Shown: positions 37,814-58,827 of the stretch, piece after piece
Numbering within the stretch: the first letter of the stretch is position 1
Layout of the letters: every line of letters starts with the position of its first letter
Assembly: GCA_017523725.1 (NCBI GenBank)
Contig: JAFWVY010000033.1
Coordinates: forward strand, 15,385-79,384
DNA length: 64,000 bases
Direction of reading: 5' to 3'
Source of the DNA: Bacteroidales bacterium
GTDB taxonomy: Bacteria > Bacteroidota > Bacteroidia > Bacteroidales > UBA4181
Translations under genes and position numbers: made by a program
Notes under the pieces: model-generated
Seen by the model: the letters and a program-made list of their open reading frames with translations, nothing else
The model's database searches: none
Told to the model about the DNA's origin: nothing

Positions 37814-37819
37814 GGCGTA

Positions 37820-39976: not shown

Positions 39977-40046
39977 ATAACTTTTTACTAATATTGTGCG
40001 TTCTTCCGGCAAGGAAACCGTGAACACCTCGGGAATACATACATGG

Positions 40047-43000
40047 ATGGCGAAAGCCGTGCGTCGTGCGCTGGGCCTGCTTCTCGCGTGGAGCATGGCG
40101 CTTGCCGTGCAGCCGGTCGCGTCCGCTCAGACGTCTGTTTCCGCTGGCCGGACGCTCTCCGAAGCCGAGCGCACCGTCCTGTCCGACCAGATCAAAGAGG
40201 TGATGGTAAAGCAGGAGTTCTATGTGCACACCACCCCGCAGGAGAAAGCCTTCCTGCACCTCGACAAACCCTATTACACCAAAGGCGACACCATCTGGTA
40301 CAGAGCTTATACCTTGCTGGCCAACAGCATGGTGCCCGACACACTCAACGGCACGCTCTACGTCGACCTCGTGCAGCAGGACGGCAAAGTGCTCACCTCG
40401 TCGCCGCTCTACCTCGATCGCGGCATGGCCTCCGGCCATATCGCCTTCCGCGATTCGCTGGTGCCCGGTTACTATATGATACGGGCTTACACCTCCTGGA
40501 TGCGCAATTTCTCCGACGAGCCCCTGTATTCGGCCCTTGTGCCCATCTATGGCGAGACCGGCGAGGACAAGCAGACGCGCTGGATATATTCCCGTTCTGT
40601 CAAGTCGGGCGAAGGGAATGAAGATACCTTGCAGCTGCACCTGATGCTCACCGACAACAACTTCAACCCCTGGAGTTTCCAGCCGTTCAAGTTCGATTTC
40701 CGCAGCCGTTTCATCCGCGCCTTGCAGGACGAAATGACCACCGCGGCCGACGGTACGGCCGACATTTCGGTGGAGATCCCCCGCGATGTGCGGCGCGATG
40801 TGGCGGCCTTGCGGCTGCTTGTCAGGAACGATGAAGGACGCAACGAAAAGACCGACTTCTCCATTTCGCTCATCCGCAACGACAGCCTGCAGATTCAGTT
40901 CCTTCCGGAGGGCGGACATCTCGTGGACGGTGTATGCAGCCGACTGGCGTATAAGGCGTTGGATATGGGCGGCATGGGCCTCAAAGTAGCCGGCAGCGTC
41001 TATGCGTCCGACCGCGACACCGCCCTGGTACGGTTCGAGAGTTCCGACCTCGGCATGGGAGCTTTCTACATCACGCCGCAGCCGGGAGTCAGCTACCGGG
41101 CCGAAGTGCACGCGGTCCGCAACGGCGCGACGGCCTCTCCGGTATTCGATTTCGCGCTGCCCGACCCTCTGCCTCGGGGCTATGTCATGGAAGTATCTTC
41201 AGTTACACGCGGCGATATCCAGGTCTTTGTCAAGCGCAAGGGCATCGCCGACGAAGAGATGCTGGGCCTTGCCGTGCGTTCGGGCGGCCGCATCACGGCG
41301 GGCAAGGTGCTGCTCATGCGGCAGGATTCGGTGATGTTCACCCTGCCCCGGGCGCAGTTCGATTCGGGTGTGTCGCAGATTACGCTGTTCGACGCTGCCG
41401 GCATGCCATGCTGCGAGCGGATGCTCTTCATCAACAAATACCAGCCGCTGCGGATTACGGCCAAGTTCGACAAAGCCGAGTACCGTCCGCGTGAGAAAGT
41501 GACGCTCGACATACAGGTCGAAGATGCCGACGGCCAACCGGCCGAAGCCTCGCTGTCGGTATCGGTGACCGATGCGGGCCTGGTGCCCGACACCTCCCGG
41601 ATAGGTGCGACCCTCCTGACGCACATGCTGCTGACCTCCGACCTGCGGGGCAAGGTGGAACGTCCGGGCGAATATTTCGCCGATACCACCCTGGCCAGGA
41701 AGAAAGCGCTCGACCTGCTCATGCTGACGCAGGGCTGGCGGCGCTATGACCTCGCCCGGGCGCTCGAAGACCGGCCCGACTATCCGTGGCGGTTTGAGTT
41801 CGCCCTGCGCATCCCCGGGTCATCCGCAACATCACGACGGGACGTCCCATGGCAGACCTGCGCGTCATCCGCGCCACCGGCACGCTGGCTAAGAACGCCC
41901 TCAAGGAGAACCGCTGGCTGCACGAGGTGAAGGGATGGGAGTATAAACTGGCCACGCAGAAAAACCTGACCGAAGTGACCGGCGCCACCGAATATCACGA
42001 CGGCTGGAAACTGCGCGAAATCGATGAAACCTCGACCGACGAGAATGGGGAGTTCTTGTTTTACAGCGCCCTGCAAGGCGAGTTCATGACCATGTTCTCA
42101 ACGCAGAAAATCGTCGGCCGCAAAAAACGCGAGACCGTCGTCGACCGCCGGGTAGATATGCTGGCCACCTACGACACCCTGCCCGGCGTACCGTTTATGC
42201 GTCATCTCGACCTGCATCCCGACGACATGAAATCCTTCCTGGCGCAGCAGCGTGCGCAGCTTGCCCTGCATGCCTCCGTCGCCTCGGAAGAACAGGATTT
42301 GAAGATCCTGCGCGACAGCATCACCACCTATCTGCTGCCGGCCGTCGAAGTCACCGCGCCGCGCGAGGCGGCCGAGAACTTCGCCCGCAGCCTGTCACGC
42401 TACCAGTTTGACGCCCAGATGGTCACCATGATGATGGCCAACACCGACAATTCCGTCATGATTCCGAGCATCGGCGAGATGCTCTACTATCTCTATCCCA
42501 ACAAGGTGACCTATTCAGAGGAGGAAGGCTACAAATGGGAGGGAAGGACCATCCTGACGTTCGACCTCACCCCTCAGAACATCCTGCCCAATAACCACGA
42601 CTACGCCTCCATTGACATGATCTACGTGGCCGAAGACCCGGCGGCCCGGCAGAAAACCTACGATGAACTCAAGCAGTACACCGAATATTGGGAATCGCTG
42701 TTCGACCTGAACCAGACCACTGGCGAAGGCGTTTTCAACACCGTGCTGGTGTTCTACACGCGCAAGCAGACCGTCTATCCGCAGCCCGGCATCCGACGCG
42801 TCTGGTGGAAAGGCTACCTCCAGCCGGCCGAGTTCTATTCACCCGACTATGCCCATTACGACCGCAACAACATCTACGACGTGGCCGAAACCGAATATGA
42901 TGCGCGGAGCACCATCTACTGGAATCCGTCCGTCATCACCGACCAGACGGGCCATGCACAGGTTACATTCTACAAATCAGACCGGTACAGCCCCATGCAA

Positions 43001-43054
43001 CTCAACATCCAGGGCATGACCGCCGCAGGGGAACTGGGGGCGCTGAAGCAGTAA
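40047..43054 (+). pseudogene. large secreted MG2 (alpha-2-macroglobulin-like) / carboxypeptidase-regulatory-like domain protein, interrupted by a -1 nt frameshift
   Basis: ORFs 39996..41930 and 41849..43054 overlap in different frames. Restoring one G in the run at 41816-41818 gives the continuous reading ...FEFALRIPG-VIRNITTGRPMADLRVIRATG..., a CarboxypepD_reg-type start. N-terminal LDKPYYTKGDTIWYRAY (MG2-like) and C-terminal TIYWNPSVITDQTGHAQVTFY are typical of this Bacteroidetes family. Confidence 0.7.
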
Positions 43055-45172
43055 TTACATGTTGTCGACCTCGGTGTCCATCTGGTTGATGCGGCGCCGG
43101 AGGTTCGATTTGAGCGATGAAACCGCTTCGTCGAAGGTCTTGTTGATATCCCCGTTGATGTTGTTCGTCGTCGGCCACATGGCCCAGTCGCGTTCCACCG
43201 AAGCCTTTACTTCGGCAGCCACATCGTCGACATAATCGACCACGCCTCTGAATGCGGACCTGATTACCGGCCACCTCTCCTTGACGCGTGCCTTGAATGT
43301 GGCGTTCTTCAGCATGTGAGGATACCAGATGGCATAATGGTAGATAGGCGTCGAAGTCCAGTCGGCGCGGAAGGTGCCGTAGTCGAAGTCCCAGAGCGGC
43401 CCCATCATCAGTTTGCCGCCCCGGTCCTTGTGCATATAGCTGCTCTTGGGATGGAAAGGCTCGTAATTGCCTACGACCTCCTGCACCAGCATCCAGTCGA
43501 TGAAACTGTCCATATCCACATCGTTGAGCCAGGAGGCATTGTTGTTCACAATCCGGCTTTGGACGCTGTTCATGAAATTCTTGATCCACGTCAGCTGGTC
43601 GGCAACCATGACATCTTCGTCCGGGCTCTTGATCATCACGGGAAGCCGGAACTGGCCGTTGCTGTGAAGCCCCGAATTGTACGGATATACGTCTGCGAAA
43701 TAATTGGTATAGAACTTATTAACCTCGTCCATCTCGGTACTGCATTCGATGAGGTAGCCTCCGGTGATGGCCGGTTCGGTGATGTCTTCGGCAGTCATCT
43801 CCGTAATGTTCACCCGGTTCTTCGCCACCTTGATATGTTCCACCAAGTAGTAATTACCCATGTGGGTGCCGTTGAGCACCAGTTCGACGAATTTGCCTTT
43901 CGGCGTCCAGTCGAGTCCCGTTGCGCGCCTGCCGAGTTCCAGTGCAATCTCGTTGCGGATGCGCGTCCTGTCCACGAAGTTGGCCAGCAGATTCCACCGC
44001 TTGTCCTTCGGCATGCCGAGAAGTCCGGCCTTGGTATCCAGCTTGATGGCGTAGGGTTTCTTGTCGAAATTCCACGTTGTATTGCCACGTCCCTTGATGC
44101 CGCCCGTGCCGAGGTCTTCGGCCGTGCCGTCGGCGTACTTCAGGTAGAAATGAGACTCCGTAATCCAGGTTTCCTTGTCCGTTATCGCCACGTTGCCGGG
44201 CGTATAGACATAGAGTACCGGGAGTGTTCCGGTCACCGTCGGAAGCTCAGGGATAACGGGTGTCAGGGGATCTTCGGGATTGCCGGGATTATTGGGGTCG
44301 CCTGAGCCACCCGTGCTTTCCAGCTGGAACGCTTCCATGGGTTGGATGACGTTGCGGACTATCGCAACAGATTTGTCCGTGGATTTGACGGTGGTTTTGC
44401 CATCGATATCTGTTACGGTTACGGTGAATCCCTTGGAGAAATCCATCGGCGGAATGGCGAGATAGAAGGACGTGGCGGCAGAAGCCTCCGTGCCAATCGG
44501 CACATTGCCACAGACAAGCGTAATAGATTCCCCGCCGTCGGACGGCAGCGTGATAACAGGATCCTCCCCGTAGGAGGCCGTGATCGTGGCCGTGCCCGTC
44601 AGGGACTCGGCGTTGTTTCCTGCAAAGACAATGCGCTGAACGGCTTTACTGCCATAGACCCGCAGTTCGAGGAATCCCATGACATGCTTGAATGGCAGCG
44701 CATGGTCGGTCAGCGAAGAAGTCACCGCCGTCATGACCCCCGCCCCTATGCCGAAAGACCCTTCGGCATAGGTCTGCATGGCGGGTACAATGTAGGTTAA
44801 AGTTCCGTCGGACGGCATCCCTGTGCTTGCTGCATAGGGATATACTGCGTAAAAACGGTTGGGGCGGAATGCCAGTCCGGTGCTCGCTATGCCTGCACTG
44901 GCAAAATCTCCGCCCGTGTCTCCCGTGTTGCCCAGGAAAATGTATTTTTCGTTGTTCCCTGCTCCGAACAGTGAGATGCTGTCACCTCCTGTCCAATACA
45001 TCGAGACGCTTTCTCCCGTTCGCTCGATGTAGGTTTTGGTCGCGTATTCCGTCTTCTCGACCGAAGCCTTGAAGACAATCTCACTTGCCGGATCTGCCGG
45101 CATGTCTGACATATCCTTCGAACACCCCGCCAGGACAGCCAGCATCGGAAACACGAAAAACAATTTTCTCAT
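43055..45172 (-). CDS. lipoprotein with a fimbrillin (Mfa-like) N-terminal domain fused to a CotH kinase-like domain
   Basis: Lipobox LAGCS. The N-terminal ~280 aa carry the FKHVMGFLELRV-type fimbrillin pattern. The C-terminal part has GIKGRGNTTWNFDKKPYAIKLD, KRWNLLANFVDRTRIRNEIALEL, LVLNGTHMGNYYLVEHI and GPLWDFDYGTF, the CotH family blocks. Confidence 0.8.
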   Translation of the reverse strand: MRKLFFVFPMLAVLAGCSKDMSDMPADPASEIVFKASVEKTEYATKTYIERTGESVSMYWTGGDSISLFGAGNNEKYIFLGNTGDTGGDFASAGIASTGLAFRPNRFYAVYPYAASTGMPSDGTLTYIVPAMQTYAEGSFGIGAGVMTAVTSSLTDHALPFKHVMGFLELRVYGSKAVQRIVFAGNNAESLTGTATITASYGEDPVITLPSDGGESITLVCGNVPIGTEASAATSFYLAIPPMDFSKGFTVTVTDIDGKTTVKSTDKSVAIVRNVIQPMEAFQLESTGGSGDPNNPGNPEDPLTPVIPELPTVTGTLPVLYVYTPGNVAITDKETWITESHFYLKYADGTAEDLGTGGIKGRGNTTWNFDKKPYAIKLDTKAGLLGMPKDKRWNLLANFVDRTRIRNEIALELGRRATGLDWTPKGKFVELVLNGTHMGNYYLVEHIKVAKNRVNITEMTAEDITEPAITGGYLIECSTEMDEVNKFYTNYFADVYPYNSGLHSNGQFRLPVMIKSPDEDVMVADQLTWIKNFMNSVQSRIVNNNASWLNDVDMDSFIDWMLVQEVVGNYEPFHPKSSYMHKDRGGKLMMGPLWDFDYGTFRADWTSTPIYHYAIWYPHMLKNATFKARVKERWPVIRSAFRGVVDYVDDVAAEVKASVERDWAMWPTTNNINGDINKTFDEAVSSLKSNLRRRINQMDTEVDNM

Positions 45173-45227
45173 AGGCCAGTCAGATTAATTTGTAAAATTG
45201 AGTTTCTGTAATAGAGCCATGTACTCT

Positions 45228-48164
45228 CTACCAGGAGAGCACATGGCTTACCGTCGGGACTCCCGAAAAGGAGGCACTGGCGGCTGACGACTGGGACGGC
45301 GTGGCCTCCCTGTCCCGAATCGGACGGATGGAGTAGGCGGCAGCCTTCATCTGTTCGTGGGTGGCCCGTATGAGACCATTTTGCTCTGCCGTGCTGATGG
45401 CAATATACAGGAACACTGCTTTCCGGTCATTGTCACCGGAGGTGGATGTTCTCGGGTCACAGACGCTGGTCCAATAGTAACCCAACGACGTCACATCGTA
45501 GATGCCCGTCTGTCCGTCACCGCCGCGCGCTCCGCAGAACGGGAAGAAGATTTTCCCATCGCCGTTCCTGGTGTTGAAACGGTAACCCTTTTCAGCGGTC
45601 AGAAGCGTACCGTTTACCTGGTTGCTTGCGTAATAGTTCCATCCGGTTGCGCTTGAAAGAGCGAATCCGGTGTAGGAATATCCAGCCGTTACAGCGAACC
45701 CTCTCGGACACGGGTCATAGACCGATTTAATCTTGGTGGCATAGTTGTCCCGGACATTATTGTCGTTCGGAATGAAAGCCGCATCCCACAGGTTGCCGTA
45801 ACTGGCCCGGGCATTGTTTCCGGTATAGTCCCAACTGGTCGCATTGTAGTAATGCTTCCACGGATTCTGGATAGAATGTCCGATGATGGAGCCGCTGGGC
45901 GGATTGCCGAAGGCCGTATGTGTCGCATCGCTGACAAAGTTGTTCACGTTGTATGCGGTGGAGTACATTGTCTTGTTGTTGTCATTGCCATTTGCACCGA
46001 TGAACGGATCCTTGCGGCCCCACTGGTAGAACGGGTTGGAACCGACGTTTTCCATGACCTCGATGCTCTCGCCGATCTGACGGACGCGGAATATCTGGGC
46101 AAACCCGGACTCATCCTGTGTCACCTTGACGTAAAGATCCCAGCTGTCCCATTTGTCAGAGCTGGCGCCGTTCGCATCGGTCCAGCCCAGATTGTAGTTC
46201 ATCATCTGGTACGAGTGGCCGTTCCAGTCGGTGACCGGCTGGGGTGTCAGATCCTTCTCCGTCACCCAGAGATGCCAGCTCCAGAGGATGGTCCCGCTGG
46301 CGTTGCGCACGGCAAGGACGGCGTTACCGGGCCGTATATGCTCTTCCGGGATGTAGAATTGGACATAATCTCCCGAAATGGAGATGTTGCTGTCTTCGAG
46401 CAAATAGGGCGCATCCTGCCAGAGAACGACCGCATCAGAGACCGTCGCTCCGTTGTTCTTGAGCCAGGGGTCCGTGATATATTGGTCGTTATGCTGGAGG
46501 AACCGGCGTAGATAATAGGCAATATTATTGCCGGTCGTTTCGTCCGCAGTACCGTGTTGGGGCCAGAATGACTGATAGTTTGTTGCACCGTTCTTGATGG
46601 CATTGCCGTAAACGAGCGGGAACTTGTAGTATCCCGGCGCCGTGATGACATAGCAGTTGGCCGTTTCCTGTGCCTCCTCGGCACTTGTTGCCACGCTGGC
46701 GGGCGGGTAGAACGGGTGCTTGGAGAGGTCGAAGTAATTCGTCGAGGAACCGATTGCAGTACGGCTCCGCAGGGTGGCCACGGCGGATTCTTCGACACCT
46801 CCTGAGGATACCTGGTGCTCAGATTCGGTATGGGCGCGGGCCACGGAGGCCGTGATGGTGTTGCTGTTGCCGTCCTGGGCGGAAATGGCCAGCCCGAACT
46901 TGTCGCCCGTGGTTTCTGCGAGGGAGTTTTTCCATGTGGTGCCGTTGGCGGAATACTGGATGGTCCATGCCACCGGAACCGGGGTTGAACTGGTGTTGCT
47001 CGTCTTGTAGCTGTTGACGGTTACGGAACCGAAATCCGGCGCCGCAAGGTGCCCGTAGGTGACGAGGTTCGAGAGGCTTTCCAAAGTGTACTCCCACACC
47101 GTCATGGTGGCGGTGACATTGTAGGTGTACATGTTGGATGCGGCCACTGTCTTGCCTGCGAGGCTGGCAGTGACATCCACCGTGTTTATGCCGTCGCTCA
47201 GGGTCAGCGTGGCGGTTGCTCCTGTGCCGAAAGTCTGCGGCGGAATGAAGAACACCTTGCCGCCGTTTTCCTTGAGGACCGCGGTACGGTTGCTTCCGCC
47301 GACCGTCGCGGTGCCGAAATCAGACGCGGACAGCGTCTGGACATAAGTGCCGGTGGTCGAACCCAGCGTCCAGGCGAAGGTGGGAGCTGCGCCCGTGGTG
47401 GACGGCGGTGTAACCGTACATGAGCCGCCCGCATTGACGCCGGAAAGGGTCACTTTCGTCACCGTATAGCCGGAAGTCAGGTTGGAGATGTCGAACCGGA
47501 TGGCAGCGAGCGCATGGCCGAACGTGAAGTTCACCATACCCGGCGTACCGGCGGCTTCGGTGTCGTTATAGCTGGCATTGGCATAGGCCGCCACAATGTC
47601 CTGCTGCCGCGTGGCATCGGCGTTGTCGGTCTGGTGCTCCGGCAGCGTGTAATTAAAGCTCATGGTGCCATAGCCGCTCGCTACGGTAACGGCTTGCGTG
47701 TAAGGAGCCCGCGCCCAGAAGGCGATGGAAGTTCCGTTCACCCAGTTGTAGGGCGTCGTACCGGTCTGGTAGAGCGTCCATGCACTGCCGGATTTGTTCA
47801 CCTGGCCGTTGTCGATGTAGTGTGTCGGCTTTCCTGTGATCGCCGTTGTCAGGTAGCCGTCCAGACCGAATTGGGCGATATTGGCGGTCGTGAGGGTCGA
47901 GCCCTTGGTGGCCAGTTCCTCCGGGAAGCCGGTCATCTGCGAGACATGCTCATAGAGCGTCAGCGCCTCACTGCCGTCCTCGCCGAGGAACACCAGCGAA
48001 TCACCCTGTTCGCCGGCGATGCCGGCACGGGTGGCAGGATCTTCTGCATTGACCGATATCAGGATTTCTTTTTCGGGAGCAGCCGATTCGTCATCGTTGC
48101 AACCGGGAAGACTGCAGGCTGCGACCAGTACCGTCGCGCAGAATAGATACGTTTTCTTTTTCAT
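45228..48164 (-). CDS. 978-aa fimbrillin-family lipoprotein with a lectin-like (FISUMP/DUF1566-like) C-terminal domain
   Basis: Lipobox LPGC + NDDES. The N-terminal ~330 aa are paralogous to the 495/500-aa proteins (FTFGHALAAIRFD). The C-terminus has DPCPRGF ... FFPFCGARGG ... LGYYWTS. Confidence 0.75.
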   Translation of the reverse strand: MKKKTYLFCATVLVAACSLPGCNDDESAAPEKEILISVNAEDPATRAGIAGEQGDSLVFLGEDGSEALTLYEHVSQMTGFPEELATKGSTLTTANIAQFGLDGYLTTAITGKPTHYIDNGQVNKSGSAWTLYQTGTTPYNWVNGTSIAFWARAPYTQAVTVASGYGTMSFNYTLPEHQTDNADATRQQDIVAAYANASYNDTEAAGTPGMVNFTFGHALAAIRFDISNLTSGYTVTKVTLSGVNAGGSCTVTPPSTTGAAPTFAWTLGSTTGTYVQTLSASDFGTATVGGSNRTAVLKENGGKVFFIPPQTFGTGATATLTLSDGINTVDVTASLAGKTVAASNMYTYNVTATMTVWEYTLESLSNLVTYGHLAAPDFGSVTVNSYKTSNTSSTPVPVAWTIQYSANGTTWKNSLAETTGDKFGLAISAQDGNSNTITASVARAHTESEHQVSSGGVEESAVATLRSRTAIGSSTNYFDLSKHPFYPPASVATSAEEAQETANCYVITAPGYYKFPLVYGNAIKNGATNYQSFWPQHGTADETTGNNIAYYLRRFLQHNDQYITDPWLKNNGATVSDAVVLWQDAPYLLEDSNISISGDYVQFYIPEEHIRPGNAVLAVRNASGTILWSWHLWVTEKDLTPQPVTDWNGHSYQMMNYNLGWTDANGASSDKWDSWDLYVKVTQDESGFAQIFRVRQIGESIEVMENVGSNPFYQWGRKDPFIGANGNDNNKTMYSTAYNVNNFVSDATHTAFGNPPSGSIIGHSIQNPWKHYYNATSWDYTGNNARASYGNLWDAAFIPNDNNVRDNYATKIKSVYDPCPRGFAVTAGYSYTGFALSSATGWNYYASNQVNGTLLTAEKGYRFNTRNGDGKIFFPFCGARGGDGQTGIYDVTSLGYYWTSVCDPRTSTSGDNDRKAVFLYIAISTAEQNGLIRATHEQMKAAAYSIRPIRDREATPSQSSAASASFSGVPTVSHVLSW

Positions 48165-48188
48165 GTTTTTTTTTATTAATGATTGAAC

Positions 48189-48211
48189 CGGTCAGCGTCA
48201 GATGCTGACCG
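48189..48211 (-). promoter_or_regulatory. intercistronic stem-loop between the first and second genes of the left pilin operon
   Basis: CGGTCAGC-N7-GCTGACCG 8-bp stem in the 108-nt spacer. No T-run follows. It is a possible attenuator or mRNA stabiliser. Confidence 0.4.
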
Positions 48212-48272
48212 ATTGCAACCGAAGCCATTATATGATAGGATACCGCATTCGTTTTACGGAGATATGTCGTTT

Positions 48273-49382
48273 TTATTCGGAGAATTCCAGATCTATGCTC
48301 GTTTCCGTCCAAGGCGTCACGATGACGTTGCCGGCCACGATCCAGGTGGCGTGCTCCGGCACGAGGATGCCTTGTACAAAATGTTTCTGACGTGCGCCGA
48401 ATTCAATCGGTACGTTGGCGCTGGTGCTCAGCTTGGTGTAGCGCGTACCGCCCGTGGTGGTCGTGATACCGAAGGTCAGGTCGGTCGCTGCGAACGGCGG
48501 CAGCAGGAAGGTGAACGTCACCGTCTTGCCATAGTTGACCACCAGCGGCTCGGACAGGGAGCCCAAGGGTATGCCGACCGTCGCGCCGCCGTTGGTCGGG
48601 ACGGGGAAAGAAGGAACTGTACCCGACCATGCTGTGGCAAGATTGGCCGAGGTAGTTCCGTGCAGTTTCGCTCCAGATGCAGAAGTCTGCAGGGACACGT
48701 CCGTGATTTTCATGTCGGCGTGATTGCTGTAGTTGTTCGTGATAGTGAACTCTATGGCCGTCACCATCGGGAGGAATTCAAGAAACACCTCGTTGCCGGA
48801 GGTGCCCGGTTCGGTGACGTCCAAGGTCTTGGCAACCATATAGAGGTAACGCGTGTCGGGAGCTGCTACATAGCCTGCTGACGCGGAGCCTGTGATGCCG
48901 GTCGGCGTCTGTATCCCGGGGAAGGCGAGGGTAACCGTAGATTCGTTCATGCCGAATCCGGATGCGATACCGGTCGTCGCGGGGGAAGGATAGACAGCGA
49001 AGAAGTCGTGCGGTGTCCCTTCGGTATCGTTCCACTGCAGGGGCTCGGCGGTAACGTCGGCCATCGCAATCTTGCCCCGGCTGTTGCCGTTGGACGCGGT
49101 TGAGTAGCTCGTTACCTTATAGTCCTGATAATGCGTTTCGGCCGGTTCTGACGATTCGGGACAGTAGATGCGGATTAAGTCGTTGACAGTCCAGTCGATA
49201 CGCTCAAATCTGGATTCTCCTTGATTCGAAATAGCTCCGCTGTAACTGGTTCTTGTCCCCTCCGTACCAGACAACACGCTGAAGCGGATGCCGTTGCCGG
49301 TATACTCGTCATCTTTCTGGCAACCGACCAGTCCGAGAACCGCGATTGCAATCAAAACAAAAAACTTTCTGTTCATATTCAT
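48273..49382 (-). CDS. fimbrillin-family (Mfa-like type V pilin-like) lipoprotein, 369 aa, first gene of the left operon
   Basis: Signal peptide + lipobox LVGC followed by QKDDE, then T-R at residue 44. FLPMVTAIEFTITN is the fimbrillin pattern. It is paralogous to 51404..52420. Confidence 0.8.
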   Translation of the reverse strand: MNMNRKFFVLIAIAVLGLVGCQKDDEYTGNGIRFSVLSGTEGTRTSYSGAISNQGESRFERIDWTVNDLIRIYCPESSEPAETHYQDYKVTSYSTASNGNSRGKIAMADVTAEPLQWNDTEGTPHDFFAVYPSPATTGIASGFGMNESTVTLAFPGIQTPTGITGSASAGYVAAPDTRYLYMVAKTLDVTEPGTSGNEVFLEFLPMVTAIEFTITNNYSNHADMKITDVSLQTSASGAKLHGTTSANLATAWSGTVPSFPVPTNGGATVGIPLGSLSEPLVVNYGKTVTFTFLLPPFAATDLTFGITTTTGGTRYTKLSTSANVPIEFGARQKHFVQGILVPEHATWIVAGNVIVTPWTETSIDLEFSE

Positions 49383-49462
49383 TTATTTATTTGCGTACTT
49401 ATCTGTTTCTCAAGTGCAACACGCACATCAATACATAGATAAAACGCGTATTGTACAGCCCG

Positions 49463-49495
49463 CAAAGATAAATAGTTTCATATACGATTGTCAAA
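49463..49495 (-). promoter_or_regulatory. canonical Bacteroidetes promoter (TTTG-N21-TATCTTTG) for the left pilin operon
   Basis: Minus-strand read: TTTGacaatcgtatatgaaactattTATCTTTG. It lies about 80 nt upstream of ATG 49382. Confidence 0.55.
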
Positions 49496-49502
49496 AAAAT
49501 TT

Positions 49503-49522
49503 CTTTTTTTTCGAAAAAAAAG
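49503..49522. repeat. perfect 20-bp A/T palindrome CTTTTTTTTCGAAAAAAAAG
   Basis: Read directly. It sits between the left-operon promoter and a plus-strand -7-like box. Confidence 0.8.
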
Positions 49523-49575
49523 TGCAAGACAGTTCCGCCGCCTCCTTGTCGTAATACATAAAATGCTGATTCATT

Positions 49576-49583
49576 TACATTTG
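49576..49583 (+). promoter_or_regulatory. candidate -7 box (TACATTTG) possibly driving the recombinase gene
   Basis: Perfect TAnnTTTG about 300 nt upstream of ATG 49882. No clear -33 was seen. Confidence 0.3.
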
Positions 49584-49710
49584 GCACTTGTTGGTATCAT
49601 CCCGGCCAGATTCGGGAGAGAGTTTTTCTCCGAACGTTTCCAAACATTTACCGTCGCCAAAGGGAATCTGGGAGACAGGAACCGTCTACTTCCGGAACGG
49701 AGAATCGACC

Positions 49711-49834
49711 CGGATTGTCGTATATATAAATATGTATCGTTTTCCCCTGTAGAGACTCTTGGCCTTGGTCTGGCAGCAGCCCATCGGGGACAAATCAGGG
49801 ACGGTTTTTCTCTTTTGCGTAGCAATTGCGTAGC
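49711..49834 (+). repeat. motif cluster upstream of the recombinase: CGGATTGTCGTA plus tandem GCGTAGC-N4-GCGTAGC
   Basis: CGGATTGTCGTA at 49711-49722. TTTGCGTAGCAATTGCGTAGC at 49814-49834, with the two GCGTAGC units 11 bp apart. The same ordered motifs recur downstream of the gene. Confidence 0.7.
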
Positions 49835-49881
49835 GAGGTGGAAATATTCGCATATTTGTAACATGGATAAAAATATTGGAT

Positions 49882-51231
49882 ATGGGGGTATTCTTTTCTA
49901 TCCGGACACGCAAGTCCAGAGGTCTGGCTGCGCTTCAAGTCCGGGTGCAAATGACTAGTCCGAAAGTCAATATCATTCAGACCACGCCAATAAGAGTGGA
50001 TATCGAAACCTACCAACTTGACCGAAACTCTCTGAAATGGGGCCGGTTCATCAAGTCGCCGGAAGGGAAAGATCTTCTGCAGAAGGAGCATGCCATCGAA
50101 AACGGCATTAATTACGTATTGCAGAAGGGCGGCGGCATAAGTCCGGAGCAGGTGCGGAAAGTCGTAGACGATGTCTGCTTTGCGGAGCTGCGCCGTAAGG
50201 AAAACGAAGCACAGGCACGGATGCATGCGGCGAAAGAAAAAGAGCAAAGAGTATCCTTCTTGAAATACAGACATATGTATCTTCAGCAGATTCAGAGTGG
50301 CGGGCGTGCCACCTATACGGGAAGGAATTTTGCGCCGTCAACGGTGGTCTCGGTCGGCATGGTATTCAATCGGCTGGCAGAATTCGAGAAACACCGGCAG
50401 CATATCTACGATTTCGATGAAATCGACATGAATTTCTACCGCGATTTCATAGCGTTCCTGAAACAGAACTCGTACAATCTCAATACTATCGGAAAGACCA
50501 TCAAGATACTCAAGACCGTGCTGCGCTGTGCCAAGGAAGACGGCTGCCACGCCAACTGCAACTATCTGGCACAGTCGTTCAAGGCCCCGAAATCCGATTG
50601 CGATGCCATTTATCTCACCCGCGAAGAGCTAGACCGCATCAATTCGCTCGACCTGTCGAAGGAGTCGCCGGGGAGACAACTGGCGCGCGATCTTTTCATG
50701 ATTGGTGTCTGGACGGCGCAGCGGGTCTCCGACTATAATCGCCTCACACGGGATTCCATCCGGACGGAGACCATCAGGAGCTGGGACGAGAACGGCAAGC
50801 TGTCGGAACGGCAGGTGATGACCATCCATGTGGTGCAGCAGAAGACAGGCAAAAAAGTGGTGATTCCGTGCAACAAAGAACTCCGTGCGCTGCTCGGGAA
50901 GTATCCGGAACGCCTGCCGCACCTCTCGGAGCAGAAACTGAACCAGTACCTCAAGGATTTGGGAAAGATGGCCGGACTCACCGAGGAGGTGGAGATCCGT
51001 TCGACGAAGGGCGGGGTTCTGACCACGGAGCGTCTGCCGAAATACCGGCTCATCCATTCGCATACAGCCCGGCGGACCGGTGCCACGCTCATGTACCTGT
51101 CGGGCATGAATGTTTACGACATCTGTAAAATCACAGGCCACTCGAACATCAAGACACTTGAGCGCTACATCAAGGCCGACGAGCTTGAAACCGTAAAACG
51201 GATTACCGAGACATACGACTATTTTAAGTAG
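49882..51231 (+). CDS. tyrosine-type site-specific recombinase/integrase
   Basis: About 449 aa. Catalytic pattern: TAQRVSD (Arg), HSHTARRTGAT (HxxR), GHSNIKTLERYIK (His...Tyr). The N-terminus MGVFFSIRTRK... is typical of Bacteroidetes arm-binding integrases. The track start 49876 is TTG and the ATG is at 49882. Confidence 0.9.
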   Translation: MGVFFSIRTRKSRGLAALQVRVQMTSPKVNIIQTTPIRVDIETYQLDRNSLKWGRFIKSPEGKDLLQKEHAIENGINYVLQKGGGISPEQVRKVVDDVCFAELRRKENEAQARMHAAKEKEQRVSFLKYRHMYLQQIQSGGRATYTGRNFAPSTVVSVGMVFNRLAEFEKHRQHIYDFDEIDMNFYRDFIAFLKQNSYNLNTIGKTIKILKTVLRCAKEDGCHANCNYLAQSFKAPKSDCDAIYLTREELDRINSLDLSKESPGRQLARDLFMIGVWTAQRVSDYNRLTRDSIRTETIRSWDENGKLSERQVMTIHVVQQKTGKKVVIPCNKELRALLGKYPERLPHLSEQKLNQYLKDLGKMAGLTEEVEIRSTKGGVLTTERLPKYRLIHSHTARRTGATLMYLSGMNVYDICKITGHSNIKTLERYIKADELETVKRITETYDYFK

Positions 51232-51243
51232 GCGGAATACCGG

Positions 51244-51320
51244 CGGATTGTCGTAAAAACTAAGGGTTCAACAGATAAAGTACGATGCCGCAAATCTTAT
51301 TTGCGTAGCATTTACGTAGC
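51244..51320 (+). repeat. motif cluster downstream of the recombinase: CGGATTGTCGTA, palindrome CGCAAAT-CTT-ATTTGCG, GCGTAGC-N4-ACGTAGC
   Basis: CGGATTGTCGTA at 51244-51255. AACAGATAAAGTACG at 51270-51284 is an inverted match to 49394-49407. The 7-3-7 palindrome is at 51289-51305. TTTGCGTAGCATTTACGTAGC is at 51300-51320. Confidence 0.7.
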
Positions 51321-51352
51321 AATTTTATAGACATGTTAAACTAAATAACTGA

Positions 51353-52420
51353 CAATCCGAGTACATTTTTTGTCCGGAGGGCACAAAAACCAGCTATGGC
51401 GACGTGACCGGAACGGGCACTGCAAAGAAACAGCGTATCGACTGGACGATCGGTGATCAGATCCGGATTCTCTGCCCTGAGGTGTCCGCACCGTCCACAC
51501 TTTACCAGGATTATCAGGTAACGAGTGTCGCAACTGCGGCCAACGGCAACAGCCAGGGAAAGATTGCATTGGTCAACGCTAACGATGAACCGCTGCAGTG
51601 GAACGCCACGGCCAACACGCCGCACAACTTTTACGCGGTGTATCCGTCGCCGGCAAACCGAGTCGAGGGATACGAAGTGTATATAGGCGACGGCAACATA
51701 GCCAGGACCGCCATCGTCTTCCCCGAAGAGGAAACCCTGATCGACAACGTCACCGAGACGCCGGCCAGCAGCGGCAACTATATTGTGACACCCGATACGA
51801 AGTACCTTTACATGATGGCCCAGACGCTCGGCCTTACCGAAGAAGCGGCCGGCACGCGGCAAGAAGTGTTCCTCACGTTCCTTCCGGTATCGACGGCCAT
51901 CGAGTTCACCATCACCAACAATTTCAGCAGCGGAGGGTCTATGAATGTCCAGGAAGTTTTCCTGAATTCGTCCGCCCCGCTGTGGGGAGTCACCAAGGCG
52001 GATTTCGGCTGGACAGGAAGCAAGCCCGTGTTCTCTACTCCAGTATCGTCGGAAACGCTTTCCAACGCGGATGACATTAAAAAGACTGGTATTGTCCTGG
52101 GTTCCGATACCAAACCTCTGACATTAGCATACGGAAAGACACTGACCTTTACCTTTTTCCTGCCGGCGAATGCTGACATCACGAACCTGACCTTCGGTAT
52201 TACAGGTACTAAAGTCAACGCGGACAACACCCCCGGTGAAGGTTTCACGCGCTCTACGGCGATAAGCAAGAGCGACGGTACGCCGATTGCCTTCGGAGCT
52301 TTCCAGAAGCACTTCGTCAAAGGTATTCTCGTCCCCGAAGGAGCCACCTGGATCGTGGCCGGCGACGTCAGCGTGACGCCCTGGAACGAAACGAGCGTGG
52401 ACTTGAATTTCGACGAATAG
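51353..52420 (+). pseudogene. 5'-truncated fimbrillin paralog (no ATG, no signal peptide or lipobox); possible silent cassette
   Basis: The frame opens after TGA 51350-51352. Homology to the 369-aa protein begins at PEGTKTSYG (versus TEGTRTSYS, residue ~40) and runs to the stop (...VTPWNETSVDLNFDE). The only in-frame start is GTG 51404. Confidence 0.7.
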
Positions 52421-52585
52421 GATTTTCAGCGTAATACATGCGGAATCGTATTTTAATTGCATAGCATTCCTTATTCTCATAGGGATTATAGGTCTCATTT
52501 TTTCTGGACAGATTTTTAAATTGTGATTTAGATATAAGTCGCGGTATCATCCGCATTTCCGGTTTCTCCGAAAATAACAAAACAC

Positions 52586-54073
52586 ATGAAAAAGAAAACG
52601 ATTCTATTCTGCACAGCGGCCATGTTTGCCGCTTGCAGTTTTTCAGGATGCAACGATGACGAATCCATTGCTCCCGAAAATGCAATCGGCGTATCGGTTT
52701 CTGCCGAGGACCTGGCCACCAAGGGCTCGGCTGTCACGACCGCCAGCCTCGCGCAGTTCGACGTGGACGGTTTTCTGCTGAAGGAAATCGCAGGCAAGGA
52801 GACGCACTACATCAACAACGGTGTGGTAACCAAAACCACCAACGGTTGGTCGCCGATTTACAAAACCGGTACGACAGACGCCTATGCCTGGGCAAGTCCG
52901 GCCATCGCCTTCTGGGCACATTCACCGTACCCGGAGGGGACCGTGCCGAGTACGAGTGTGACGTATGCGACCGACTACGGCACCATGAGTTTTGGTTACA
53001 CGCTGCCGGCCCACACGTCCGACAATGCCGATGCTGAACTGCAGCAGGACATCGTAGTGGCCTACACCAAAGCCAGCTACGCCGACACCGAGGCAGCAGG
53101 CTATGTTCCCGGCGTCGGCAAGGTGAACTTCACGTTCGGCCATGCGCTTGCGGGCATCCGGCTCGACGTGACCAACCTGGCCGCAGGTTGGACCGTGGAG
53201 AAGGTGACACTCTCCGGCATCTACTCGGGCGGATCCTGCACCGTCACGCCTGTCGCGAGCGGGGCGCCGACCTTTGCGTGGACGCTTGCTGCAGGTACTG
53301 CCACCTTTGTCCAGACACTGGCTCCGGCCGACTTCGAAGAAGTGACAGTCGGCGAGGGTGAGGATGCTGTTACTTCGACTCTTCTCAAGGAAAGTACCGG
53401 CAAGGTGTTCTTTATTCCGCCGCAGACCTTCCCCGAGGGGGCGAAGATGATTCTGACCTTGAACGATGGTGAGAATTCGTTCGATGTCACCGCCAGCCTC
53501 GCAGGCCTGACGGCCGTGGCGTCCAAGATGAACACTTACGCGGTTACCAAGGGTTTCCTGACCGTAACTCTTACGGGAGAAGTCAGAAACTGGGACACAA
53601 CAGAAGTTCCTTACACCACCTCCGACGAGCTCCCCCAGGCGACCCAGTTCGCCGTTTCCGGGGAAGGTGTTAAAAACGTATATGAACTGCACAATACAGA
53701 TGCGGGCAAACCTTTCCGCCAGACCTGGGTGCTCGGGACCAATACCGCCACGGTGTCGTTCCGGATTTTCTCCCCTGCGGGAGGTACCTATGAGATCGTA
53801 CCTCAGGGTGCCACCGAAAAGTTCACCGTCAGCGGTACCCTTACGGGCTCCATCAGCGCACGCAACAGCAACGACGGTATCACCAAGGCCGTCTTCACCA
53901 TCACGCCCAACGGCGCTGCGGCTGGCGACCAGATCTGGTTCAAGACCTATGTCACAGACACCAAAGGAACAGAAGACACGTCCGATGACGTCACTTACAG
54001 TCTGGATTCAGAGACGCAGCTGTACGACATCCGCGGATACCACTACTTCCAGATCAACGATCCTCTTCAGTAG
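52586..54073 (+). CDS. fimbrillin-family lipoprotein, 495 aa (module A, gene 1)
   Basis: Lipobox FSGC + NDDES, T-K at residue 46, FTFGHALAGIRLD. It is a close paralog of 58828..60330 and of the N-terminus of the 978-aa protein. Confidence 0.8.
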   Translation: MKKKTILFCTAAMFAACSFSGCNDDESIAPENAIGVSVSAEDLATKGSAVTTASLAQFDVDGFLLKEIAGKETHYINNGVVTKTTNGWSPIYKTGTTDAYAWASPAIAFWAHSPYPEGTVPSTSVTYATDYGTMSFGYTLPAHTSDNADAELQQDIVVAYTKASYADTEAAGYVPGVGKVNFTFGHALAGIRLDVTNLAAGWTVEKVTLSGIYSGGSCTVTPVASGAPTFAWTLAAGTATFVQTLAPADFEEVTVGEGEDAVTSTLLKESTGKVFFIPPQTFPEGAKMILTLNDGENSFDVTASLAGLTAVASKMNTYAVTKGFLTVTLTGEVRNWDTTEVPYTTSDELPQATQFAVSGEGVKNVYELHNTDAGKPFRQTWVLGTNTATVSFRIFSPAGGTYEIVPQGATEKFTVSGTLTGSISARNSNDGITKAVFTITPNGAAAGDQIWFKTYVTDTKGTEDTSDDVTYSLDSETQLYDIRGYHYFQINDPLQ

Positions 54074-54097
54074 TAATTCTCAATCAGTCAAAAGAAT

Positions 54098-56683
54098 ATG
54101 AAAAGATTTATATATAGCATCATGGCGTTGGCGGTAATCGTATGGACCGTCACATCTTGCAATGTCACGGAAGAGGAACCGGCAACGCCGGCAGGTCAGC
54201 TGACCATCAACCTCGACAGCGGATTCCTCCAGACGCGTACGGCGGATGTGTCGTTCGAAGGCGTTATTGACCATTTTGACTTTTTCTTCTTTACAGATGC
54301 CGAAGGAACTACGCCTGTGGCAGGGATGCACGGCCGGGTAACGGGCAGTACGACGACCCTTGATGCCACTAAAAGCGGGGATTATTACGCCCTCCGTCAC
54401 ATCACATCCTATGTGTACATCCTGGCTAATTATCCCGGCGAACTGAGCCATACCGCAGACTGGACCCTTGCGCAGCTGCTGGCCCTGGAACTCGACCATC
54501 CTCTTGCCAAGAGAGTGACGGTGGTGAATCCGGAAACCGAGCTGCCAGAGGAGACCGATGAAATCGAGTTCTGCGATTATCTGGTGATGGACTCTTACGA
54601 TGCTGCCAATAATACCTATACCACGGAAATCGCTCCGCAGACGTTCAACGAGACGCGCACGGTGACCATCGGCCTCAGCCGCATCGCCGCCAAGCTCACG
54701 ATGGAAATCACGGTCCCGGAGAGTGTCACCAGTGCGGGAGGTGAGGTCTGGACCCCGGTGGTGAAAGACATCCAGGCGTATTTCGTGAACGCCCTTAACA
54801 ACAAGCCTACGGTGAGCGGTACTCCCGTAAAGCGCAGCGGTCTCACCAGTGAGACGGGCTATGAATACATGACCTATCCCACCTCGTATCCGCTTACGCG
54901 GAAGGAAGGGACAGACATAGTCTTCGATACGGATCCGGTCTATACCTATCCCCAGGAATGGACGATGGGAGAGAACGGCGAGGCCTACTTCAAGATTGCG
55001 ATGCCCTGGAACGGCAGTGTCCACGGTACGTCCAACTTCTATTACAAAGTAACGGCACCGAAGCCGGTGGATGGAAAGATCACCCTCAACCGCAACAGCT
55101 GGTACAAGATCAGCGTGACCCTTTCGGTTCTCGAATCCGAAGAAGAATACATAGAGGTACAGTACGATTTTACCGTGGCTCCCTGGGCCGGCGGCATCGA
55201 TGGCGGCAGCCCCCTGAGCTCGGCTCAGTTCTTCAATGTGCCCGTAAAGAGTTATACCCTCTATAGTCAGGACAGCATCATGGTTCCGTTCTCTTCGAGT
55301 TCGGCGGTAAGTGCGTACTTCACGGAGATCAGCTACAAGCACTACAGTGAAGGTGAGAGTGCAACCTACACGTTCAACTATACTGAGAGTGACAATAAGA
55401 CTTCCTTTACCCTTCCTACAACGTACGAAGGAGCAACGATTTCTCCTGCTATCGCTCAGGACAAGAATGCATACACCCTGACGGTAGAAGGTAAGAACGT
55501 CAAGTTCAAACACCCGTTGGCCAATATTTATACGGTACGTAATGTCACGTTTGTCATCAAGAATGAGGAGGGTTTAACAGCGACTATTACGATAGCGCAG
55601 CATCCGGCCATTGAGGTTAAAAACCGCTTAGGCGGAACCGTTTTTGTCAACGGCCATTTTGCCAGGGCACTGCCGACTGTACATGTGAATGGTGTTTCGA
55701 GCCAGGGTGTAGAAAACCAATTGATGGGTGCCCCTATAGTACTTCGCTATATCCCCGGACAAGGGGAGACCAGATATCACAGTGATGATAAAGATTTTCC
55801 TGTGGAGTCAACTTCGTTTACTAATACAAATGCATATTGGTACTATCCGGCAAATTATGGCTCTACCGAGTCAACCACGCCTGTAATTATCAGAGATCCT
55901 GATTATGGACGCTACGGGTTTGTCGAGGCCGATGTCGATCGTGGCAGAGAACTGTATATGACAGAAGTAATTGTGTCTGCTTTTAATTCAGGCAACAATA
56001 AGTATGTCATCAAAGAGAACGGCGTGATGAAGGACTCTACGTATTTCAGGCTTGGAGACCCGCGCGTTAAAGCAGGTTCTTCGCGGTTTTCGGAGTTTAC
56101 GATTGTCCCGTCAAAACGAAATAATAGGACGGGTGGAGGCTATCTGTACCAGGCTTCGACTCTGAGAGATTCCAACGGAACTCCACTTGCCGAACAAGTA
56201 GATGCCGTATATAAGGCATGGGAACAACCCGAAAAGATAATGATCTCCTCCACAAATAAGTTGGATGCCAATTTTATCGCACCCCACTTCATTGTATCCT
56301 CCTTCTTTAATGCACAGCCAGGCTCTCTTACGCATGCAAATTGTATAAAGCGTGCAGCTACTTATCAGGAAGCTGGTTTCCCTGCCGGCCGCTGGCGTCT
56401 GCCTACCGAGGCTGAAATCATGTTCATGGTTCAGCAGCAGCAGCGGGGTGTGATTCCGATTATCTGGGCCGCGGGTTCCACTTATTGGTGTGCCGATGGA
56501 CGGTATGTGACTGTGGGTAATTCTGGTGATGTCGTGAGTTTCACCACGACCACTGCCAGTGACACACGCGTCAACCGTTTCGTCTATGACCTCTGGTACT
56601 GGGGTGATGAACCGATGTCCGACACAGAAACCTACTGGCCCAACATGCACCTTGTGGCACCTAATGCAAACGCTGGTAATTAA
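54098..56683 (+). CDS. 861-aa FimA/Mfa-like pilin-family lipoprotein with a DUF1566-like C-terminal motif (module A, gene 2)
   Basis: Lipobox VTSC, T-R at 47, IDHFDFFFF motif, C-terminal YQEAGFPAGRWRLPTEAEIMFM. It is a paralog of 60352..62997. Confidence 0.75.
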   Translation: MKRFIYSIMALAVIVWTVTSCNVTEEEPATPAGQLTINLDSGFLQTRTADVSFEGVIDHFDFFFFTDAEGTTPVAGMHGRVTGSTTTLDATKSGDYYALRHITSYVYILANYPGELSHTADWTLAQLLALELDHPLAKRVTVVNPETELPEETDEIEFCDYLVMDSYDAANNTYTTEIAPQTFNETRTVTIGLSRIAAKLTMEITVPESVTSAGGEVWTPVVKDIQAYFVNALNNKPTVSGTPVKRSGLTSETGYEYMTYPTSYPLTRKEGTDIVFDTDPVYTYPQEWTMGENGEAYFKIAMPWNGSVHGTSNFYYKVTAPKPVDGKITLNRNSWYKISVTLSVLESEEEYIEVQYDFTVAPWAGGIDGGSPLSSAQFFNVPVKSYTLYSQDSIMVPFSSSSAVSAYFTEISYKHYSEGESATYTFNYTESDNKTSFTLPTTYEGATISPAIAQDKNAYTLTVEGKNVKFKHPLANIYTVRNVTFVIKNEEGLTATITIAQHPAIEVKNRLGGTVFVNGHFARALPTVHVNGVSSQGVENQLMGAPIVLRYIPGQGETRYHSDDKDFPVESTSFTNTNAYWYYPANYGSTESTTPVIIRDPDYGRYGFVEADVDRGRELYMTEVIVSAFNSGNNKYVIKENGVMKDSTYFRLGDPRVKAGSSRFSEFTIVPSKRNNRTGGGYLYQASTLRDSNGTPLAEQVDAVYKAWEQPEKIMISSTNKLDANFIAPHFIVSSFFNAQPGSLTHANCIKRAATYQEAGFPAGRWRLPTEAEIMFMVQQQQRGVIPIIWAAGSTYWCADGRYVTVGNSGDVVSFTTTTASDTRVNRFVYDLWYWGDEPMSDTETYWPNMHLVAPNANAGN

Positions 56684-56700
56684 CGAGTCAATCCAAGAAA

Positions 56701-58746: not shown

Positions 58747-58786
58747 AGAATGAAAGTGTTGCATTATCGATAATAAAGGAAAATAT

Positions 58787-58823
58787 GGGACGGACGCCGC
58801 AGGGCGTTCTTCCCTTTTCTTGT
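58787..58823 (+). terminator. probable intrinsic terminator between module A and module B
   Basis: GGGACGGACGCC-GCAG-GGCGTTCTTCCC, an imperfect 12-bp stem, followed by TTTTCTTGTT. Confidence 0.45.
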
Positions 58824-58827
58824 TAAA

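Follow-up and report, generated by a model that had tools for sequence, protein, structure and literature searches.

A probable two-state inversion switch between two type V fimbrial operons of a Bacteroidales bacterium

The locus and its two orientations

The window analysed here, a stretch of 64,000 nucleotides (nt) from the Bacteroidales bacterium assembly GCA_017523725.1 (contig JAFWVY010000033.1, positions 15,385 to 79,384 of the forward strand), carries a tyrosine recombinase gene between two outward-facing clusters of paralogous type V fimbrial genes, an arrangement which an initial annotation of this DNA had described and which holds at every position that it gave. Paralogy between the left and right clusters gives rise to imperfect inverted repeats that extend over 134-173 nt with 72-78% identity. 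Located between them is a segment, bounded by a 7-base-pair (bp) core sequence on either side, that combines the recombinase gene with a promoter motif and the 5' end of a fimbrillin gene, and that very probably works as a two-state, site-specific inversion switch between the two fimbrial operons. The features on which this reading depends are the following (lengths of proteins in amino acids, aa).

49265-51374, no strand: invertible segment of 2110 bp between the cores; the window has it in orientation A, with the left operon predicted to be ON
49246-49267, minus strand: left site, GTA CGGAGGG GACAAGAACCAG, with the core at 49258-49264, in codons G39-S46 (G-T-E-G-T-R-T-S) of the left fimbrillin
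51372-51393, plus strand: right site, GTC CGGAGGG CACAAAAACCAG, with the core at 51375-51381 and an internal dyad TTTTTGT-N9-ACAAAAA
49265-49382, minus strand: leader exon of the fimbrillin gene, with start codon, signal peptide, lipobox Cys21 and N-terminal strand (residues 34-38)
49463-49495, minus strand: Bacteroidetes-type promoter motif, TTTG-N21-TATCTTTG, facing the leader exon
49882-51231, plus strand: tyrosine recombinase gene, 449 aa (Pfam Phage_int_SAM_5 and Phage_integrase), inside the invertible segment
48273-49382, minus strand: left first fimbrillin gene (Mfa_like_1), encoding a 369-aa precursor; its body is 48273-49257, predicted to be ON in the window orientation
51382-52420, plus strand: right first fimbrillin gene, a 5'-truncated body, predicted to be silent in the window orientation

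As judged by translation, the left first gene is complete, starting with MNMNRKFFVLIAIAVLGLVGC and carrying the lipobox cysteine at position 21, whereas its right counterpart is devoid of a start codon, a signal peptide and a lipobox; the upstream in-frame reading of the latter is EYIFCPEGTKTSYGDV, preceded by a stop at 51350-51352. This leaderless gene, overlooked in the initial annotation, is the strongest single clue within the window. Fusion of the leader exon to the right body in silico is in frame and gives a precursor of 387 aa. The exon ends immediately before a conserved T-[KR]-T-x-Y motif. The promoter motif upstream of it, TTTG-N-TAnnTTTG, has its sole match in the region from 43 to 64 kb inside the segment, as previously noted, and is one of three matches in the whole window; positions 49463-49495 are also the best sigma-70-like match on the minus strand, in a scan for sigma-70 promoters and terminators that returned matches at no more than chance frequency.

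The left and right sites constitute a 22-bp imperfect inverted repeat, matching at 19 of 22 positions, in which the core CGGAGGG falls within precursor codons T-E-G. Core sites of tyrosine recombinases typically consist of an overlap of 7 bp between partly symmetric arms. The site pattern CGGAGGGNACAARAACCAG has exactly two matches in the window (0.07 expected), and a third site was not found within the 64 kb even with up to three mismatches allowed, the right cluster extending past the end of the window; as far as the window shows, the switch has two sites.

Nine related public contigs were compared with the window (among them L001, L034, L035, L037, L040, L042, L043 and L045), a ruminant-gut origin being judged from XIEF21-1 and RGIG-type sample names. 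The comparison of orientation across related assemblies, which had been proposed as a check, shows that relatives are not always collinear: the window and L042 are in orientation A, L034 and L035 (allele 1 of the segment) as well as L001, L040, L043 and L045 (allele 2) are in orientation B. A search with the in-silico fusion of left leader and right body retrieved P0001, a right-type fimbrillin of full length that carries a leader and is encoded on contig L001. This 7.3-kb contig holds the complete locus, with the left flank collinear to the window up to 49267 (97.7% identity), the right flank collinear from 51372 (95.7%) and the middle inverted. L040 likewise represents the complete locus in orientation B, on a single 12-kb contig, and has a full-length leader-bearing right-type gene as does L001. 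L034 and L035, recovered in a metagenome scan with the recombinase, encode an enzyme 99-100% identical in amino acids to that of the window, and the 3' end of the gene continues into the reverse complement of the window from 49267 downwards, with a left body 98.9-99.2% identical.

A further configuration is provided by L037 (GCA_024699385.1, JAILPQ010000015.1), a near-conspecific genome which is 95% identical to positions 34123-43052 of the window over 8.9 kb. Beyond this point (with the truncated recombinase locus at 8903-10394) follow, in this order, only the first 170 recombinase codons, inverted, then the promoter, the leader exon, the core and a right-type operon; in the 60 nt that precede the core, the leader exon equals that of the window at 60 of 60 positions. 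There is no left cluster, and the catalytic half of the recombinase is lost. Because one contiguous deletion yields this arrangement only from orientation B, L037 descends from an ON-right state and is a natural deletion variant, locked in that state, that has lost the enzyme.

The junctions, read from the inside of the segment outwards, resolve the exchange to the base. The right junction of the window is CATTTTTTGTC CGGAGGG CACAAAAACCAG CTATGG and its left junction is TGTCTGGTA CGGAGGG GACAAGAACCAG TTACAG; the junction of L034 and L035 is CATTTTTTGTC CGGAGGG GACAAGAACCAG CTACAG, and that of L037 is TGTCTGGTA CGGAGGG CACAAAAACCAG CTATGG. The discriminating bases on either side of the core, A or C at -1 and G or C at +1, segregate as expected for recombinants, so every crossover falls inside CGGAGGG with zero bases gained or lost. 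Identity to the window breaks at 49267/49268 in L001, L034, L035, L040 and L043, and the right-flank homology of L001 and L040 begins at 51372. Allele 1 thus exhibits all four junctions, with the exon joined to the left body (window, L042), the dead end joined to the right body (window), the dead end joined to the left body (L034, L035) and the exon joined to the right body (L037). These are conservative, reciprocal junctions at a short and defined core, which characterize site-specific inversion.

Allele 2 (L001, L040, L043 and L045) encodes a recombinase with 83% amino acid identity and has the core CGGAAGG at both sites, a change which is synonymous (GAG to GAA) and keeps the partner sites identical. 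The segments of the two alleles are approximately 78% identical in nucleotides (49265-51374 versus L001 3962-6050, L040 7705-9800 and L043), and approximately 45% in the non-coding stretch beside the dead-end core. Up to the very edge of the cores, the neighbouring fimbrillin bodies share 93-98% identity, and the boundary of divergence coincides with the recombination sites. The allele-2 leader has been found both on a right-type body, in P0001, which joins the allele-2 exon to that body, and on a left-type body, in P0007. A third allele of the recombinase appears to exist in P0063, at 92% amino acid identity.

Among predicted proteins, the cluster to which the left fimbrillin belongs at 90% identity comprises four full-length members of the invertible type, four of a fixed type beginning with MYMNRT, and six of 263-264 aa from different assemblies, which are the gene-caller output for the leaderless state. 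By exact look-up the fimbrillin is absent from the protein collection as a 369-aa protein and present as one of 367 aa, with a start two codons downstream.

Several of the contigs show further peculiarities. In L034 (JAEEGK010309257.1) a 62-nt tandem duplication at about positions 400-465 shifts the frame of the recombinase gene and may be an assembly artefact or another natural lock on the switch. The first fimbrillin body of L037 is 52% identical in amino acids to that of the window and its downstream operon approximately 79% identical in nucleotides, and since its flank is 95% identical, the fimbrial genes diverge much faster than the flanks. L041 (ENA ERZ28653423 scaffold_45969), from another strain, encodes at positions 1-5633 a left-type fimbrillin with a different leader (MYMNRTIF...) at an internal position after a 1097-aa gene; another paralog, at the beginning of the contig, starts near the core position. 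The fimbrial clusters appear to be modular and variable between strains. L040 apparently does not have the first (495/861/681) gene set. That the contigs L041 and L043 end at the core was considered as a sign of mixed orientations and dismissed, because the segment is interrupted on one side only.

The fimbrial operons, the recombinase and accessory motifs

The genes downstream of the first fimbrillin genes and two motif pairs within the segment are listed here.

43055-48164, minus strand: remainder of the left operon, the 978-aa and 705-aa genes (assigned by translation, Pfam and paralogy)
45228-48164, minus strand: 978-aa lipoprotein gene; the N-terminal third of the product is paralogous to the 495-aa and 500-aa proteins
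43055-45172, minus strand: gene for a 705-aa fimbrillin-like lipoprotein with a CotH domain (Pfam)
51404 to beyond 64000, plus strand: right cluster as called
52586-64000, plus strand: remainder of the right operon, encoding proteins of 495 aa, 861 aa (FimD tip adhesin), 681 aa, 500 aa and 881 aa (FimD), and a further gene
from about 63014, running off the window end, plus strand: further right-operon gene, 681-like
49815-49837, plus strand: tandem TTGCGTAGCR pair, 11 bp apart, approximately 45 nt upstream of the recombinase ATG
51301-51323, plus strand: second tandem pair, TTGCGTAGCA / TTACGTAGCA, 11 bp apart, approximately 50 bp inside the right core

Precursor, fold and operon context support the type V fimbrial nature of the locus: the left first gene product is a lipoprotein precursor and belongs to the family and fold, and tip subunits are encoded in the right operon. 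The 369-aa protein matches PF13149 Mfa_like_1 with 30.9 bits (cut-off 27). Its AlphaFold model (predicted local distance difference test, pLDDT, 74.5; predicted template modelling score, pTM, 0.73) matches crystal structures of the type V pilin superfamily, namely BF1858, BACUNI_00621, BF1861, BACOVA_04980, Mfa2, Mfa3 and Mfa4, with E values down to 1.6e-9. The 861-aa and 881-aa proteins reach 241 and 278 bits with the equivalog model NF052322 FimD_tip_adhes of NCBIfam (cut-off 170). Pfam and NCBIfam assigned no family to the 978-aa, 495-aa and 500-aa proteins, and the 681-aa protein has only a sub-threshold match to the Mfa1 family.

Type V pilins mature by Arg/Lys-specific cleavage after an N-terminal strand, at Arg46 in FimA and Arg49 in Mfa1. 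In the model of the 369-aa protein, strand 34-38 is followed by a low-confidence loop at 40-50, and residues 343-369 are likewise of low confidence in the monomer. The core and, just after it, the motif T-[KR]-x-x-Y are located in that loop; the motif is kept in 19 of 19 homologues, the T and the Y being invariant and the second position always K or R. By analogy with the characterized pilins, cleavage would take place at R44/K44. Since the exon ends before this motif, which lies where type V pilins are cleaved, the mature products of the two first genes probably have hardly any exon-encoded residues in common, and the exon would encode little more than the part removed on maturation.

The recombinase has both expected Pfam domains, PF00589 with 45.3 bits (cut-off 27.1) and PF13102 with 42.9 bits (cut-off 22.3). 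Its catalytic residues R281 (TAQRVSD), H394-T-A-R397, H420 and Y429 (GHSNIKTLERY), assigned by motif reading, are intact and invariant in a three-sequence alignment of the proteins of the window, L001 and L002. A sequence search of the PDB with the recombinase returned no match, an exact look-up of the protein with its ATG start found none in the protein collection, and a Pfam search of the N-terminal 141 residues gave no match that would indicate an arm-binding domain. The nearest relatives outside the locus, obtained in a search of genome contigs, share 63-69% of their amino acids. In the two contexts inspected (L002, L021), genes for helix-turn-helix/IrrE, PIN, DUF4417 or hybrid two-component proteins are located nearby, and no homologues of the fimbrillin, the 495-type protein or FimD were detected by tblastn in L002-L033, so that the architecture is not conserved among the wider relatives of the recombinase. 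The distant fimbrillin homologues P0016 and P0017 reside in fixed operons with no recombinase. As the relatives of the recombinase are found in unrelated contexts and the distant fimbrillin homologues in fixed operons, the arrangement appears to be confined to a narrow ruminant-gut lineage of the Bacteroidales.

The TTGCGTAGCR motif occurs in four copies in the segment (0.76 expected), and both pairs are kept in position in allele 2, that at 49815-49837 in sequence as well, despite the diverged non-coding surroundings. These pairs may be accessory (arm-type) or operator sites, as their number and conservation suggest. The recombinase gene points to the operon predicted to be OFF in either orientation, and the scan identified no terminator-like site between the recombinase stop and the right core (51232-51374); in either orientation, the recombinase transcript might extend at a low level into the later genes of the OFF operon, which have signal peptides of their own.

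The right operon looks as if a set of three genes had been duplicated in tandem, with 495/861/681 aa at 52586-58746 followed by 500/881 aa and the 681-like gene from 58828 onward. The 681-aa gene at 56701-58746 on the plus strand is overlapped nearly completely by an antisense open reading frame at 56719-58764 on the minus strand, also of exactly 681 aa, which presumably is a by-product of composition, odd as the equal length is. Next to the left operon, the gene for an MG2 (alpha-2-macroglobulin-like) protein at 39996-43054 on the plus strand is present as two overlapping reading frames, one of 644 aa ending at 41930 and one of 401 aa starting at 41849, whereas its counterpart in L037 is a single gene of 996 aa; the split is a probable frameshift, due either to pseudogene formation or to a sequence error.

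The proposed inversion switch and its alternatives

In the mechanism that we favour, the recombinase would act on the inverted sites at 49246-49267 and 51372-51393, with strand exchange within CGGAGGG. In orientation A, the promoter and leader would be fused in frame to the left gene, so that the operon of the 369-aa, 978-aa and CotH-705 genes would be ON and the right first gene would be left as a leaderless stump. In orientation B, the same promoter and leader would be placed on the right gene, which would then encode the 387-aa precursor, and the 495/FimD-861/681/500/FimD-881 operon would be ON. Because inversion would move a single promoter and leader between the operons, one fimbrial set would be expressed at a time. 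The initial annotation had already proposed a switch that carries promoter and leader exon in frame between the 978-aa/CotH and the 495/861/681 sets, and this part of its proposal stands, although the sites that it named are the wrong ones. The anatomy, both orientations and the precise, conservative junctions at the core are observed; reversibility within one population and a change of expression are predicted.

Several observations weigh against this interpretation. Each assembly shows a single state, and the two orientations, known from separate assemblies, might in theory be strain differences that have become fixed. All four allele-2 contigs are in orientation B, and the sole sign of state A for this allele is the protein P0007, which has a variant left-type body (75% identical). 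The sites are short in both core and arms and, with their three mismatches, imperfect. The promoter at 49463-49495 is a motif match with a presumed activity. Since its relatives occur in unrelated contexts resembling those of mobile elements, the recombinase is no less similar to an integrase than to a dedicated invertase. The encoded enzyme would presumably catalyse the inversion; indirect pointers to this are that the core co-varies with the recombinase allele and that the locked L037 has a truncated recombinase.

The alternative that takes up the first of these points, namely that the orientations are fixed strain differences left by rare historical inversions, or chimeras of metagenome assembly, with no active switch, is improbable. 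It would account for each orientation deriving from a different assembly and for the uniform orientation of allele 2, but both orientations occur among sequences that are 99% identical in recombinase and flank, and at least eight assemblies, which differ in project and in contig-naming scheme (k141-type, scaffolds, Logan), show them again. A repeat of 7 bp or 19 bp is far below the assembly k-mer of 141 nt suggested by the k141 names, so chimeric joins are not expected from it, and the junctions are base-perfect reciprocal recombinants. Moreover, a leaderless second copy makes sense only as the partner in a switch.

General homologous recombination between the inverted paralogs, with the recombinase as a bystander such as a remnant integrase, is very improbable. 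The paralogs do offer hundreds of bases at 72-78% identity in inverted orientation, and the nearest relatives of the recombinase elsewhere resemble the integrases of elements. Homologous recombination would, however, favour the longest identical tracts (21, 16 and 16 nt), whereas every independent junction maps to one 7-bp core, which sits at the outer margin of the homologous region, within 22 bp that include three mismatches. In allele 2 the core has changed in concert at both sites, the recombinase gene is intact inside the segment in both alleles, and it is the locked L037 that has lost the catalytic half of the enzyme.

The initial annotation had placed the crossovers elsewhere, at three exact inverted repeats within the paralogous genes which are present precisely where it located them, including a third copy of pair (c).

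49189-49204 (minus strand) and 51432-51447: pair (a), 16 bp, conserved R-I-D-W-T motif in the region of the invariant W64; not a crossover
48330-48350 (minus strand) and 52343-52363: pair (b), 21 bp, conserved C-terminal strand region A-T-W-I-V-A-G; not a crossover
48085-48101 (minus strand), 52649-52665 and 58900-58916: pair (c), 17 bp, lipobox Cys and acidic N-D-D-E-S of the second genes; not a crossover

When tested against the background identity of the paralogs, such runs exceed what independent sites would give, but they are not distinctive. In the first-gene pair (61% identity), 0.16 runs of at least 16 nt are expected under an independent-sites model and three are observed; codon-phase shuffles of the same pair reach a run of 21 in 1.6% of trials. 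This pair has four runs of at least 14 nt (21, 16, 16 and 15), and pairs of second-gene paralogs have 8-13 such runs each, up to 27-31 nt long, among them runs between the 495-aa and 500-aa genes on the same strand, where inversion is irrelevant. The reservation expressed at the time, that short identical runs can arise from ordinary conservation between paralogs, was well placed, as each run sits on a constrained protein motif. A crossover at (a), (b) or (c) is found in none of the nine related contigs. Those which span these repeats are collinear with the window there, and the stretch between the core and (a), a repeat located approximately 60 bp further into the gene, stays in every contig with the gene body and not with the leader. 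A scan of the window with the site pattern detected nothing like the mapped core at (a), (b) or (c). It was also considered that homology starts at the 16-bp repeat (a), which was rejected, as a one-codon insertion or deletion masks a homology that reaches 60 bp further upstream, to the core. Inversion at these exact, in-frame and unexpectedly long repeats, with several fusion points as in a multi-site shufflon, is hardly credible given the collinear contigs, exact runs of the same or greater length elsewhere in the paralogs, same-strand pairs included, the position of the runs on invariant protein motifs, and the lack of core-like sequence.

Beyond inversion itself, promoter, leader exon and recombinase might constitute a self-contained, exchangeable cassette, with the exon boundary at the cleavage motif so that the whole mature fimbrillin would change; this extension of the switch is unlikely. 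The pattern of the alleles, with divergence that starts exactly at the two cores, would fit whole-cassette replacement at the core sites, a natural recombinase-mediated cassette exchange, or long-maintained incompatible switch types. If the cassette reading were true, the switch would reuse only the leader that is discarded and would replace the entire mature fimbrillin.

In gut and oral Bacteroidales, type V fimbriae serve as major adhesins, and to our knowledge the choice among fimbrial loci in this order is mostly known only as the ON/OFF flipping of promoters. Through the inversion switch proposed here, a single module would make two complete fimbrial and adhesin sets mutually exclusive, one with the CotH-domain protein and one with the FimD-type tip adhesins, and it would achieve this by moving a coding leader exon. 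As the sites are mapped to the base and natural ON-left, ON-right and locked variants exist in public ruminant-gut assemblies, the locus is ready for direct testing. At this locus, programs that find invertons by long perfect inverted repeats would choose the wrong sequences, the true site being a core of 7 bp within an imperfect repeat of 22 bp.

Relation to known recombination systems

The likeness to the R64 shufflon and the G segment of phage Mu, which had been drawn at the outset, stands in so far as a programmed inversion would select an adhesin or tip variant; the defining features of both systems fail and the likeness is loose. In R64, Rci acts on seven sfx sites and swaps C-terminal segments of PilV, with promoter and N-terminus fixed, whereas the present locus has two sites, and the N-terminal leader and the promoter would be swapped and whole operons exchanged. 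In Mu, Gin is a serine recombinase that works with an enhancer and effects a C-terminal swap, unlike the tyrosine recombinase encoded here.

Similar in design is the vsa locus of Mycoplasma pulmonis with its recombinase HvsR, which has one expression site, consisting of a promoter and a lipoprotein-leader 5' end, and silent genes without a 5' end. Comparable inversions are described for mba/UU172 of Ureaplasma (PMC3047005). In these systems as in ours, a tyrosine recombinase determines, or would determine, which body is joined to the leader, although the organisms and proteins are unrelated, and there are many silent copies rather than the single one found here.

With respect to fimbriae, promoter invertons are located upstream of type V (Mfa1-type) fimbrial loci, for example BVU2677/BVU2684 of Phocaeicola vulgatus (PMC12940148), and fimbrillin family genes are enriched near invertons (PMC11892184). 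The common features are a tyrosine recombinase beside a type V fimbrial operon and an expression set by inversion. The difference is that promoter invertons flip ON or OFF with both repeats in intergenic sequence, whereas the present locus would provide an either/or choice, with sites in coding sequence and the leader exon moved together with the promoter. Inversions that overlap genes have been catalogued as 'partial intergenic' or shufflon-type invertons (PMC9881135, PMC10028968).

Closest in logic are the loci of Bacteroides in which gene 5' ends are exchanged, those of BT1041 and of the Tsr enzymes. The latter were reportedly characterized by Nakayama-Imaohji et al. in 2009 (cited in PMC9881135) and 2016 (PMC4747536) and by Weinacht et al. 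in 2004 (cited in PMC10028968). The Tsr tyrosine recombinases of Bacteroides fragilis are described as inverting loci of the SusC/SusD family and of other outer-membrane proteins. They resemble the present case in that tyrosine recombinases of Bacteroidales vary surface proteins by inversion, in some instances of the shufflon type with the 5' parts of genes. They differ in their cargo, and some Tsr enzymes are said to act on distant promoters.

In the BT1032-BT1053 shufflon, a polysaccharide utilization locus of Bacteroides thetaiotaomicron, the tyrosine recombinase BT1041 moves the sole complete 5' end among truncated susC-like genes, and its crossover has been narrowed to 7 bp by the tracking of single-nucleotide polymorphisms (Porter et al. 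2020; bioRxiv 10.1101/521070). Both loci have a tyrosine recombinase in their middle, one full 5' end with 5'-truncated partners, a 7-bp crossover, and expression that is moved, here by prediction, to an alternative operon; the combination of one complete 5' end and promoter with truncated partners is present in the window as it is there. The BT1041 system targets susC-like transporters, and the part that it swaps includes the domain in contact with an anti-sigma factor, whereas in the present locus fimbrillin operons are addressed and the signal peptide and propeptide would be swapped. It also has three sites, several states and repeats that are direct or imperfect, as opposed to two inverted sites and two states here, the 64-kb window holding fewer than the at least three sites of that type of locus. 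In a limited search of the literature, no account was found of a leader exon being exchanged between two fimbrial operons. The type of switch is already known, and its fimbrial target is a new example.

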